Origin: Candidatus Poribacteria bacterium
GTDB lineage: Bacteria > Poribacteria > WGA-4E > WGA-3G
Assembly: GCA_963665235.2 (NCBI GenBank)
Contig: CAXXLX010000001.1
Span: forward strand, 1,184,001-1,248,000
DNA: 64,000 bases
Direction of reading: 5' to 3'
Every line of letters begins with the position of its first letter. The stretch's first letter is position 1. The position numbers and the translations under genes were made by a program. Positions 12,402 to 16,706 of this stretch are shown in pieces. Under the pieces are notes generated by a model that worked only from the letters and a program-made list of their open reading frames with translations, had not been told where the DNA came from and searched no databases.

Positions 12402-12885
12402 GTAAAGGTATTTATTAAAAAATTCGCTTGACTTTTTTTCTGTATGTGGTAAACTAATTATGAGGCTTCTAATGAGACTTAACGAACGCGGTTGAAAAGG
12501 GTTTCCCGTGTTCACGGAGGATTCGTTGTCTCCTGACTTAGGTAAAACCCTGAATTCAGGAGGTTTACGAAATGGCACAAGATGTACACACAATGAAACG
12601 GCCTATAGGGAAACGGCCTATAGGGGCTTAGCTGATATTTTAGGCATTGCGCTTTCTTGCAGAAAGACGCAATGCCTGATTGCGCCTACACCTATTACTA
12701 CAGAAAACGCGAGTTTGAAAAAAGTTTTGACCTAGAGCGTTCTCTGGTAGTTTTAGCAAAAAACTGCACAAACTAGGAAGTATGTGCTACAATTATGCTG
12801 CTTTTTTCTCGGTGAAAAAGGTTTAGAGCAAACGGATATTTATTATCAAGCTCACGTAAATTAAAAACTAACGGTTATTATTTCC

Positions 12886-12914
12886 TTGCATTCCAAAGCG
12901 ACAACGTGTATAAT
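12886..12914 (+). promoter_or_regulatory. Sigma70-type promoter, probably the native leuC promoter
   Basis: TTGCAT-17 nt-TATAAT, followed by an orphaned AAGGA RBS at 12966-12970. Confidence 0.65.
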
Positions 12915-12977
12915 TAAATAAGGTGAACTCACAACACAAAACCTACGCCAAATTTGATTCTTCATAAGGACAGAAAA

Positions 12978-13175
12978 GTAAAGATCACCCTGCTAAAGCA
13001 TGGGTGCTTTGACATAGCGTAACCACACGTTCCCTGTCAAAGATTAAGTTCTTCACTACAGTCATATATCGGTATATCTGTGGTGGTGCACAACGGTGTT
13101 TCGGATGCTCCCCAAGTCCGATGTAAACGCTGATATACCGATCTGGATGGGGAAATACAAACTCTACGGAGAATT
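12978..13175 (+). ncRNA. Putative omegaRNA scaffold
   Basis: ~200-nt structured non-coding region directly upstream of a PLMP/RuvC gene, beginning at the left-end hairpin (includes CTTTGACA...TGTCAAAG pairing and a CGGATGCTCCCAAGTCCG stem). Boundaries approximate. Confidence 0.7.
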
Positions 13176-13182
13176 ACAAACT

Positions 13183-14211
13183 ATGTTTGTTCCTGTCGTT
13201 GACAAAAACCAAAATCCACTGATGCCAACAAAGCCTTCGCGGGCAAGGAAGTGGATACAAGAAAAGAAAGCGACACCCTTTTGGAAGAATGGCGTTTTTT
13301 GTGTGCGCCTTAACGCTGCTCCTTCGGATAGATACTTCCAAGAGATATGTGTAGGCGTAGACCCTGGCAGTAAGAAGGAAGGCTTTACCGTCAAAAGCGA
13401 GGCACATACCTACCTGAATGTGCAAGCAGACGCTCACAACAAGGTTGGAAAGAAAATCGAAAAGCGGCGGACGCTGCGGAGAGGCAGACGCACACGGAAA
13501 TGTCCGAATCGGAAAAAGAAGCATCACAACCTGTCGAACCGGAAGCGTATCCCCGCAGGCACACGTGCAAGATGGGATTGGAAACTTCGCATATTAGATT
13601 GGTTGTCTAACCTCTATCCTGTTACACACGTCTGTGTTGAGGACATTAAGGCGCAAACAAAACAGTATCAAAAGCAGTGGAATCAGGCTTTTAGTCCTTT
13701 GGAAGTCGGCAAGCACTGGTTCTATTCAGAGGTAGAAAAGCGATGGAAACTCCTGACATTACAAGGGTTTGAAACCAAAGAGATACGCGAGCGTCTGGGT
13801 CTCAACAAGTCGTCAAAGAAGTTAGCTGAAACCTTTGAGGCACATTGCGTTGATAGCTGGTGCTTGGCCTATCACACCGTTGGCGGTTTAGAGATACCCG
13901 ACAATACCGATATATTCTGTATCTCACCGATACCGATACGCAGGCGAGAACTCCACAGACAAAATCCGCAGAAAGGTGGCAATCGTCCGCGATATGGTGG
14001 CACCTTATTAGGCGATGGACTCGTTAAAAACACATTGATAAAGCACGACAAATATGGACTAACACGCCTTGCCGGTGTTAATGCTAAAGGACTATTCTCT
14101 GTCTATTCAAAAGATGGACACCGATTAACAACGGGTGCGAAACGCACAGATTTTCAAGTCCTAACACGCTTGAACTTTCAATATAGGAGCGGTGTTTCCT
14201 CCCCGTGCTAA
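13183..14211 (+). CDS. isrB: IsrB-like RNA-guided nickase (PLMP/RRXRR + split RuvC, no HNH), 342 aa
   Basis: NPLMPT, RuvC-I VGVDPG, Arg-rich bridge helix [12 protein letters not shown], RuvC-II VCVEDI, RuvC-III HCVDSW; no CxxC/HNH insert; GGAG RBS before ATG 13183. Confidence 0.88.
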
Positions 14212-14239
14212 AGCAACGGGGTCTCCACACCGAAGATTG

Positions 14240-15640
14240 ATGAAAAAAAACATGTACGAAAAAATATGGGACGCGCATATAGTGCGAGCATCCGCTACTG
14301 AAGTGCCAATCCTCTACATAGATACACACCTCGTTCACGAAGTGACATCCCCGCAAGCATTTGAAGGGTTGCGCCTCAACAACCGAAAAGTACGCCGACC
14401 CGACCTGACGTTCGCCACGATGGACCACAACGTCCCCACAACAGACAGAACGCTACCCATCACCGACCTAATTGCAGCGAAGCAGATGGAAACCCTCGCG
14501 CAAAACTGTGCCGAATTTGACATTCCGCTCTACGACATCAACAGTCCCGAACAGGGGATTGTTCACGTCATCGGGCCCGAATTGGGCATCACACAACCCG
14601 GAAAAACGATTGTGTGCGGTGATAGTCACACCTCAACCCACGGTGCGTTAGGCGCGCTTGCCTTCGGCATCGGCACAAGTGAAATTGAGCATGTCCTCGC
14701 CACACAATGTCTCTTGCAACATAAGTCAGAAACCTTTGATATCCAAATTGATGGAACACTCCCTTACGGCGTTACCGCAAAGGACATCATCCTCTCGATT
14801 ATCGGACATATCGGTATTGACGGCGGCAACGGTGCCGTGGTGGAATATACAGGTTCGGCTATCCGCGCCCTCAGCATTGAGGAACGGATGACCGTTTGTA
14901 ATATGTCAATTGAGGCAGGCGCGCGTGCTGGCATGATTGCCCCCGACGATACGACCTACGAATATCTCGCTGGTAGACGTTTCGCTCCGAAAGGCGAAGC
15001 GTTCGATACAGCCGTCGAACGTTGGAAACTGCTCCCGACCGATGAAGGCGCAAGCTATGACCGCACCCTGCAACTCAACGCAGCAGACATTGCACCGCAG
15101 GTGACATGGGGAACAAACCCCGGCATGGTAACCGATGTGACAGGACACGTGCCGAATCCAGCTGACATGACATCCCCCGATGAGAAGCGCGCCGCTGAAC
15201 ATGCTTTAGCTTACATGGACCTTCAGCCCGGCACCCCGATGACAGATATTCCTGTGGATAGGGTTTTCATCGGCAGTTGTACCAACTCCCGCATCAGCGA
15301 TTTACGAGCTGCTGCAGAAATCGCCAAGGGGCGGAAGGTGGTAGACACCGTCAGTGCAATGGTCGTCCCCGGTTCGCAGGCAGTCAAACGTCAAGCGGAG
15401 GCGGAGGGGCTCGATGAGATTTTCCGTGCTGCAGGATTTGAATGGCGCGAAGCCGGGTGTAGCATGTGCCTCGGCATGAATCCCGATATCCTGATGCCGG
15501 GTCAACGCTGCGCCAGTACATCCAACAGGAATTTTGAAGGTAGACAGGGTAAAGGCGGACGCACACACCTCGTCAGCCCACAGATGGCGGCTGCAACTGC
15601 GGTTACAGGCCGCTTTGTAGACATCCGAACGTTTGGATAG
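14240..15640 (+). CDS. leuC: 3-isopropylmalate dehydratase large subunit
   Basis: [51 protein letters not shown]. Start set at ATG 14240 ([10 protein letters not shown]). Confidence 0.97.
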
Positions 15641-15718: not shown

Positions 15719-15925
15719 ATGGAATCTATCATCATTGAAAAAGTCAAAGAGCTTCCGCCAGAGCTCCAGGAAGAGGTCATTAATTTCATTGATTTCCTGC
15801 GAACGAAAAAAGGTTCAAAACGGGGAAAAAAACCAAACTTGGAATGGATTGGCGGATTAGAAACGTATCGTGACCAATGGACAGCTCTCGAACTTCAGCA
15901 GAAAGCGTCAGATTGGAGGGATTAG
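15719..15925 (+). CDS. DUF2281-like antitoxin
   Basis: LPPELQEEVINFIDFL motif, 68 aa, overlaps the start of the PIN gene. Confidence 0.8.
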   Translation: MESIIIEKVKELPPELQEEVINFIDFLRTKKGSKRGKKPNLEWIGGLETYRDQWTALELQQKASDWRD

Positions 15926-16317
15926 TGTACCTTGCAGATACCAATATTTTTCTTGAAGCCCTGTTGGGACAAGAGAAAAAGGACGATGTCCAATCATTCT
16001 TACAGAATATTGACTTGAGCGAAATCTTCATAACAGATTTGTCGCTTCATTCCATAGGCATTATTCTGTATCGGTTGAAGAATTCTGCTCTCTTTAGGAC
16101 GTTCTTAGAGGATATAATTGTTGATGGAGTTGGCATCCTTTCCTTGCCACCGGAAGATCTTAAAACGCTTGCCCTGACAGCCGATAAATTTAACCTTGAC
16201 TTTGACGATGCATATCAATACGCTGTCGCCGCGAAATATGAAATGCAACTCATCAGTTTCGATACGGATTTTGATCGAACCGAAAGGAAACGAAAGGAAC
16301 CTATTGAGGTGTTATGA
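15925..16317 (+). CDS. vapC: PIN-domain (VapC-like) toxin
   Basis: YLADTNIFLE...LDFDDAYQY...LISFDTDFD; GTG start overlaps the antitoxin TAG. Confidence 0.88.
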   Translation: MYLADTNIFLEALLGQEKKDDVQSFLQNIDLSEIFITDLSLHSIGIILYRLKNSALFRTFLEDIIVDGVGILSLPPEDLKTLALTADKFNLDFDDAYQYAVAAKYEMQLISFDTDFDRTERKRKEPIEVL

Positions 16318-16706
16318 TGAAAACTTGGCACGAAATATTAATCGCCGATCTTGCCGTCAACCGAGCTGAAGCAATTGACTATTTTGATATGTCACTGCAA
16401 GAATACCAAACTGATGGCGACACCCTCTTCCTTCTGAAAGGACTTCGCAATATTATAGAGGCACTAGGCGGAGTTTCCGAAATTGAAAAGCAAACCGGTA
16501 AGGAGACGGAAGGCCTTCTTAAGGTGCTGTCCAGCAACGACGCGCCAAGTCTTGATACGCTCAACACCCTGGCTAAGGCCCTGGGATGTCGGTTGTCTAT
16601 TGAACCGTTACCGGCTGCACATCCAGACCATGAAGTTAAGGACGAGAATCAGCTAATTGCACAGCGAACGACCGCGCATCCTAGTTTCGAAGTCGCTACC
16701 GACTAA
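16314..16706 (+). CDS. HTH addiction-module antidote-like regulator
   Basis: LRNIIEALGGVSEIEKQTG...PSLDTLNTLAKALGCRL resembles HI1420-type antitoxins. Confidence 0.7.
   Translation: MMKTWHEILIADLAVNRAEAIDYFDMSLQEYQTDGDTLFLLKGLRNIIEALGGVSEIEKQTGKETEGLLKVLSSNDAPSLDTLNTLAKALGCRLSIEPLPAAHPDHEVKDENQLIAQRTTAHPSFEVATD

Follow-up and report, generated by a model that had tools for sequence, protein, structure and literature searches.

An IsrB transposon inserted at the leuC start codon probably brings a split replacement ribosome-binding site

Introduction

How could leuC be translated when a transposon separates its Shine-Dalgarno (SD) sequence from its start codon? This question is raised by a locus in a window of 64,000 nt of Candidatus Poribacteria DNA, in which the native SD AAGGA is followed by 7 nt and an IsrB/omegaRNA element and now lies 1.27 kb away from the ATG. 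The gene is intact and the sole leuC of the genome, the second match being a 29% aconitase-type protein. A first-pass annotation had seen no clear SD at the element end and had suggested that leuC expression may depend on re-initiation after isrB, RNA processing or precise excision. The features of the locus are listed in Table 1.

Table 1. Features of the leuC locus (positions within the window)
Feature	Position	Strand	Details and basis
Likely host sigma-70-type promoter	12886..12914	+	Weak -35, extended -10; sequence; -10 recurs before leuC of relatives
Predicted omegaRNA guide (leuC 5' leader, outside the element)	12958..12977	+	Position 5' of element; 20-nt length taken from Hirano 2022
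Native leuC SD AAGGA	12966..12970	+	Sequence; duplex of -4.5 kcal/mol with host anti-SD; kept in empty alleles
IS200/IS605 (ISC1-type) element, non-autonomous, 1,262 bp	12978..14239	+	No target duplication; copies, empty alleles
Transposon right end	12978..13010	+	Terminal GTAA, hairpin 12986-13006, DNA guide CTTT 13007-13010; sequence
OmegaRNA scaffold, HEARO-like	12978..13158	+	RF02033 model 1-211, E=0.0086, under gathering score; fold 12921-13185 z=-2.6
isrB, 342 aa	13183..14211	+	RuvC D60, E153, H221, D224 present; no HNH
Element-borne outward-facing SD AGGAG	14185..14189	+	Kept inside or outside isrB frame; tracks ATGA target
Left-end hairpin	14190..14232	+	Outer stem 14190-14195 with 14227-14232; inner hairpin, TAAA loop; DNA guide TCTC 14222-14225; fold z=-2.7, covariation
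7-nt spacer between hairpin and ATG	14233..14239	+	Sequence; 7-10 nt in relatives
leuC, 466 aa	14240..15640	+	First four bases ATGA = target word; TIGR00170 above cut-off; 87-92% identity to same-family orthologues

The element and its insertion in front of leuC

The position of the IsrB/omegaRNA element between the leuC SD and the ATG, as annotated at first, was confirmed by the sequence, by further copies and by empty alleles. BLAST of the genome set the element ends by one copy of 99.6% identity and five copies of about 94%, and ATGA adjoins all 12 copies displayed. The isrB product has PF14239 (RRXRR) as its sole domain match, fits the group of about 350 aa and aligns to DtIsrB (8DMB) over residues 3-294 (E=4.7e-36) without a large insert; its named homologues are Poribacteria. 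The HEARO match spans the whole model but is weak (25.3 bits compared to a gathering score of 83, E=0.0086). The element shows the subterminal hairpins, the fixed 4-nt target and the lack of target duplication of the ISC1 group and is an ordinary ISC1/IsrB member of IS200/IS605. By the TnpA pairing rule, a DNA guide in the transposon end pairs with the terminal or target word. Copies starting with GTCA bear CTTG in place of CTTT, as predicted by this rule; the DNA-guide concept for IS200/IS605 ends is described in the preprint text of Meers 2023. The genome has 13 PF01797 (Y1 transposase) matches, which are candidates for acting on this end in trans. The IS200/IS605 load is heavy genome-wide, with 23 RRXRR, 44 TnpB zinc-finger and the 13 Y1 matches. 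Several copies have a palindromic insert of 34-35 nt inside the left-end hairpin (G000:C1:3021517, 1659675, 533432; runs X4, X5).

A host promoter upstream of leuC and the element, also proposed in the first-pass annotation, is likely. By sequence reading it is TTGCAT-17-TATAAT, with only three of six -35 positions, yet with TG-TATAAT; it was absent from the output of a consensus promoter scan. The -10 region 'gtgtataatt' was found again before leuC in the relatives L005, L007, L012 and L017, and a similar one in L024. A simple scan of the + strand found no terminator within the element. In RNA runs X8, X10 and X11, contigs of related copies span omegaRNA and isrB, and one contig of 3.3 kb runs from the element end into other host DNA. 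No contig among those listed for these runs joins the element end to leuC; contigs carry neither strand nor level, and these were not counted as evidence. Downstream, three small genes (window positions 15719-16706; a DUF2281/VapB-like, a PIN toxin-like and an addiction-module antidote-like ORF) part leuC from leuD.

Empty leuC alleles were found on contigs of related strains. Their 3' junction falls precisely on the ATG, and 2-3 additional bases precede it: in one form 12974 is joined to 14240 with 6 other letters (runs X4, X5), in the other 12977 is joined to 14240 with 2 letters (run X5), giving SD-ATG spacers of 9-10 nt. Excision of IS200/IS605 elements by TnpA is precise; the exact rebuilt empty allele with its 7-nt spacer was present in 0 of 8 sequencing runs, in contigs that drop rare forms, and a scan of metagenome contigs for the empty junction pattern gave 0 matches. 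Of the empty allele reconstructed earlier, the exact 3' junction at the leuC ATG thus stood, and the form AAGGA-7 nt-ATG was not seen in these runs. The extra 2-3 bases beside the ATG in both alleles (window positions 12975-12977; X4, X5) would mismatch the guide seed; they are either the ancestral state or an escape of the target site.

The flank predicted to form the guide is the leuC 5' leader, as had been proposed, since the omegaRNA guide is drawn from the 5' flank of the element (preprint text of Meers 2023) and has a length of 20 nt (accessible text of Hirano 2022, PMC9581776). There is no perfect genome site for its last 11 bases plus ATGA. Because the guide is itself a ribosome-binding site, six sites match with one mismatch, compared to one for the control; these six (G000:C1:585551, 1925913, 2754340 and three others) resemble the starts of other genes.

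The left end places an SD, a hairpin and a short spacer before the ATG

Reading towards leuC, the left end consists of AGGAG, a hairpin of 43 nt, 7 nt and the ATG, which puts AGGAG 50 nt upstream of the ATG. The 3' end of the host 16S rRNA carries the canonical anti-SD. With it, the element AGGAG forms a duplex of -6.1 kcal/mol, the native AAGGA one of -4.5 kcal/mol and the bases beside the ATG one of only -0.3 kcal/mol. The earlier view of an end lacking a clear SD therefore applies to the bases beside the ATG and fails for the stretch before the hairpin. In the best predicted fold the element SD is free (85% unpaired), and the leuC AUG is predicted to be only 35% unpaired.

The outer stem was 99.6% paired over 42 aligned ends, with two-sided change at three of its six pairs, and the whole left-end structure scored higher than each of 500 shuffles and every slid control. 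Parsing succeeded for 76 of 80 further isrB loci, of which 63 had AGGAG or AGGAA before the stem and 9 were mis-set; the spacer measured 7-10 nt in 57 of the 60 ends with an ATG call. In the genome, the native spacing from GGAG to the start peaks at 7, a result that is partly circular, as the gene caller scores SDs. Among relatives the SD is kept even where the isrB stop precedes it. Since the 80 loci from the protein-based genome scan were all from Poribacteria or close genomes, distant ends were sampled only from viral and metagenome contigs, with the host unknown. The same SD-hairpin-ATG layout was present in many distant viral IsrB elements. In distant ends the SD lies 0 to 4 nt from the stem.

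In some ends (L059, L111, L924, L929, L948-L953) one side of the internal loop is replaced by the complement of the other, which results in a perfect hairpin and possibly arose from template switching. Two other layouts were rejected. An in-frame GTG at 14192 as start would be only 2 nt from the SD and is in frame only in copies with a 7-nt spacer. A TGATG/ATGA stop-start overlap with isrB does not apply, as the isrB stop is 28 nt earlier than the ATG.

Insertions favor ATGA at gene starts

The first-pass annotation had taken the start codon to be the TAM and had asked whether other copies also lie before ATGA starts. We paired 31 elements of the genome by hand from end searches. ATGA adjoins 30 of them, and 16 of these 30 sites are predicted start codons. 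The loop word of the end predicts ATGA, ATAA or GTGA, and flank and word switch together. Occupied ATGA sites were distributed as 16 start, 7 intergenic and 7 coding sites, compared to 1357, 7271 and 30225 genome-wide, which gives odds ratios for start sites of 12 against intergenic and 51 against coding sites; starts missed by the crude gene caller would inflate these ratios. The caller, which uses an SD score, was run on the emptied genome and predicted 3844 genes (79% coding), 1361 of which open with ATGA. In the set paired by hand, 17 of the 30 sites look like starts, compared to 7.8% of all ATGA.

Part of the start bias is expected because IscB-type elements prefer transcribed sites (preprint text of Meers 2023). 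TnpB elements can do without a host promoter and show the bias as well: a hand count of 44 TnpB-type ATGA ends in relatives gave 21 that open an ORF of at least 80 codons, compared to 20% for any ATGA.

The target itself is known. N/ATGA, with the slash marking the insertion point, has been published for ISC1 and IS605B (main text of PMC4810608). In Table 1 of that paper, the targets GT/GA and GT/GG are readable as /GTGA and /GTGG if the element begins with GT, and most of the ISC targets listed there would then begin with ATG or GTG.

Presence of the SD follows the target word

Ends were gathered by patterns or by a model that omits the SD, and SDs were scored within 9 nt before the stem; the parsers dropped or mis-set some ends. 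In this genome, 25 of 37 ATGA/ATGG ends had an SD, compared to 1 of 31 non-start ends, and the 12 misses belong to one AAAGG family below the threshold. Among the relatives (146 top-scoring loci, 141 parsed), an SD was found in 62/74 ATGA, 4/15 GTGA, 2/19 ATAA and 2/14 GTAA ends, and also in 34 of 44 antisense, TnpB-type ATGA ends. With a 14-nt window, ATAA (8/19) and GTAA (7/14) ends of the relatives scored as well, via AAGGA 5-7 nt further back; this genome gave no such rise.

The viral and metagenome set was reduced from 488 loci to 76 distinct ends, 51 of them with ATGA or ATAA. SDs were present in 13/25 ATGA vs. 3/26 ATAA ends (p=0.0025, a value that overstates, as copies and kin are not independent), in 10/25 vs. 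0/26 at -6.5 kcal/mol, and in 3/4 vs. 0/13 when only ends assigned to TnpA/TnpB by Pfam were counted. A control window 30 nt further upstream gave 0 for both words. A separate count by 80% clusters gave SDs in 19/29 vs. 1/17. The SD was lacking in 12 of the 25 distant ATGA ends and likewise in one TnpB family in G032. Results of a first general parser on viral loci (17/22 vs. 6/30) were discarded, its non-start class being mostly noise.

At locus L1017 an ATAA-type end sits just 5' of the native minE SD, which therefore still adjoins its ATG; an end that does not depend on an SD would be expected to insert in this way.

Solo ends remain in front of host genes

The 20 unpaired ends examined in this genome include 11 diverged solo ends, 10 of which open ORFs of at least 97 codons. 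Among them are the leaders of ddl and accB, both single-copy genes by genome search. Such a hairpin is absent from 29 relatives each for ddl, accB and a conserved 97-aa ORF, and many of these have an ordinary SD near the ATG (judged by eye; the script misplaced a few starts). In relatives (four, plus the top matches of others) we found 13 solo ATGA ends, some of which may be gene-less minis: 11 lie before long ORFs, 12 have the element-type SD and none has an SD beside the ATG. In another genus a remnant leads pheT in 4/30, minE in 4/30 and rpsA in 2/22 species, and these remnants match the end model wherever tested. These genes (ddl, accB, pheT, minE and rpsA) are known to be essential. At ddl, accB, pheT and rpsA the second transposon end is missing from the remnant.

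The minE insert has the native SD spacer on one side and the ATG on the other. All four carriers read AAAGCG where the native SD was AAGGAG, and they retain the SD and the outer stem of the element; the alignments were read by eye, one of the two remnant alignments being partly out of register. Decay of the native SD with the element SD kept is the strongest sign that the element SD may be in use.

In the three remnant carriers displayed for pheT (L964, L966, L974) the gene is no longer preceded by pheS, unlike in L967. Native rpsA leaders (L1026-L1045, genus g6; also G000:C1 near 1332000) consist of AAGGAGG, a predicted hairpin of about 40 nt, 8-10 nt and ATG in 20/22 species displayed; at rpsA, a split site with this geometry may already be native to the host. 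These leaders are not taken as derived from the element, as the three tested did not match the end model.

Discussion

We propose that the left end probably acts as a replacement split ribosome-binding site, which would bring the element SD to the host ATG. This reading is supported by the ATGA target, the start bias, the order of SD, stem, spacer and ATG, the covarying stem pairs, the dependence of SD presence on the target word, and the solo remnants. The element, with TnpA presumably supplied in trans, would insert directly 5' of an ATGA that is often a gene's start codon. The host promoter would yield a single transcript of guide, omegaRNA, isrB and leuC, in which the transposase hairpin would loop out 43 bases and let AGGAG land 7-10 bases from the host ATG, and ribosomes would start leuC from this split site. 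Start codons would be tolerated landing sites, and insertion there would also provide IsrB elements with a host promoter, on which they depend. Later the element body would decay, and SD and hairpin would stay as the gene leader. With such a site neither excision nor splicing is needed for leuC translation.

Somewhat less firmly, we lean towards a wider reading, in which ATGA-targeting IS200/IS605 elements (IsrB, TnpB and gene-less) have a means other than splicing of sparing the host genes in which they insert. The hairpin would serve as an mRNA loop-out that delivers an SD, the SD would be gained and lost with the target word, core genes (ddl, accB, pheT, rpsA, minE) would repeatedly have taken over the module as their sole ribosome-binding site, and translation-initiation regions would have been rewritten genome-wide. 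If true, this would explain why the start codon is a common target word of the transposons ancestral to Cas9 and Cas12 and how insertions before needed genes survive. One short sequence would do two jobs, recognition by the transposase on DNA and positioning of the ribosome on RNA. There would be many natural split ribosome-binding sites, with longer loop-outs than in the T4 cases, and a route for mobile DNA to replace translation signals rather than promoters.

The conservation of the hairpin needs no role in translation, since TnpA uses the hairpin. The SD could likewise be a by-product, with AGGAG kept for a DNA-level reason such as pairing with the TTCCT loop strand in transposition, the start bias resulting from ATGA as the commonest gene start together with survival and the need for a promoter, and the downstream genes being weakly translated without an SD. 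The internal-loop strand TTCCTC is indeed complementary to the SD, pairing between them is possible in 94.8% of cells, ATGA begins more than a third of the predicted genes, IscB elements prefer transcribed sites (Meers 2023, preprint text), and half of the distant ATGA ends have no SD. We nevertheless regard this explanation as unlikely. The helix between SD and loop strand shows no two-sided change and equals the shuffles, ATAA ends share the outer stem but lack the matching upstream complement to the loop strand, and the SD-to-stem distance varies in distant ends. In addition, start sites are favored 12-fold even over intergenic ones, and SD and stem outlast the element body in old remnants, whereas the native SD of minE has been lost.

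Re-initiation is very improbable as the main route. Ribosomes ending isrB at the stop at 14209-14211, within the hairpin loop, would restart on leuC; the distance to the ATG is short, both genes are on the same strand, and a terminating ribosome would melt the hairpin, which may add to the action of the split site at the leuC locus. However, the same module occurs where no ORF ends at this place, namely in gene-less minis, solo remnants and antisense TnpB elements, and the isrB stop shifts relative to the SD among relatives.

We give even less credit to a two-state switch, in which the formed outer stem leaves the SD free (on) and pairing of the SD with TTCCTC hides it (off), toggled by translation of isrB or by a ligand. 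Both folds are possible: the SD is predicted to be paired in 5/42 ends, and the SD-hidden fold is the best one predicted for the pheT remnants L964 and L965 and the minE remnant L994. These folds may be prediction errors, may present a competition that the 30S subunit resolves, or may reflect a switch. Against the latter, the alternative helix lacks compensatory change, the outer stem is predicted to dominate in 36/42 ends, and the downstream genes share no pathway.

There is hardly any probability that leuC is silent until precise DNA excision or RNA removal of the element: TnpA excision of IS200/IS605 is documented (preprint text of Meers 2023) and Y1 transposases are encoded in the genome, but no intron family was found in the window, none of the eight runs contained the exact junction left by excision (contigs drop rare forms), and the remnants at ddl, accB, pheT and rpsA cannot excise.

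The split site is thus our preferred reading, and the earlier interpretation of the locus is partly supported: the insertion, its target, the guide-forming flank and the likely promoter held, and a dependence of leuC on re-initiation, RNA processing or excision is not supported, as the same SD-hairpin-ATG module is present in TnpB elements, whose gene runs the other way, and in solo remnants without upstream ORF or transposon body, where these three routes are closed.

Comparison with known systems

The element shares with ISC1 (IsrB) and IS605B (Kapitonov, Makarova and Koonin 2016, PMC4810608) a RuvC-only Cas9 homologue, subterminal hairpins, a 5'-GT terminus, insertion 5' of ATGA without duplication, and ends in common with antisense tnpB elements. 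Unlike our reading, the main text of that paper, in which the terms 'start codon', 'Shine' and 'translation' do not occur, connects the target neither with gene starts nor with a replacement SD. The literature searched, which included this main text, a 2026 review and the preprint of Meers 2023, yielded no report of a replacement SD in IS200/IS605 ends, with most subscription papers and all supplements outside its scope. As far as this literature goes, the ATGA target is known and the replacement ribosome-binding site is new. The DtIsrB-omegaRNA complex (Hirano 2022, PMC9581776; PDB 8DMB) has a homologous protein, an NTGA-type TAM and a 5' guide. In contrast to our work, the accessible text describes a nuclease structure, and the SD mentioned there, which the PLMP domain contacts and which lies at the terminal hairpin of the omegaRNA, is by our reading that of isrB itself.

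In IS900 of the IS110 family (accessible text of PMC8141618) the target motif also covers an SD and a start codon, but the transposase is of another family, the host ribosome-binding site is used for the element's own hed ORF, and no replacement SD is described for the host gene. An IS900-type start-site element was rejected for our locus, as the only ORF is IsrB, with no IS110-family DEDD transposase, the target is ATGA, and several insertion sites lack an SD on their 5' side. IStrons (10.1101/2023.11.20.567912, PMC4227781; accessible texts) are likewise IS200/IS605-type elements that are harmless to the host gene at the RNA level. They splice out by a group I intron, whereas the RNA of the element at leuC is predicted to stay intact. 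Identity with an IStron was rejected: the element is filled by omegaRNA and isrB, Rfam gave no match at gathering score in the window, and HEARO was the only match at E up to 1 in 12800-14400.

The closest parallel in translation is given by the split ribosome-binding sites of T4 genes 38 and 25, in which, according to the accessible text of a review (PMC3014915), a stem between SD and AUG turns an over-long spacing into a working one. At leuC, the SD is too far from the AUG and a conserved stem between them is predicted to restore the spacing. The T4 sites differ in being phage-native and in shortening 22 to 5 and 27 to 11 nt, whereas the element end would shorten 50 to 7 nt, uses a transposase hairpin and is mobile.
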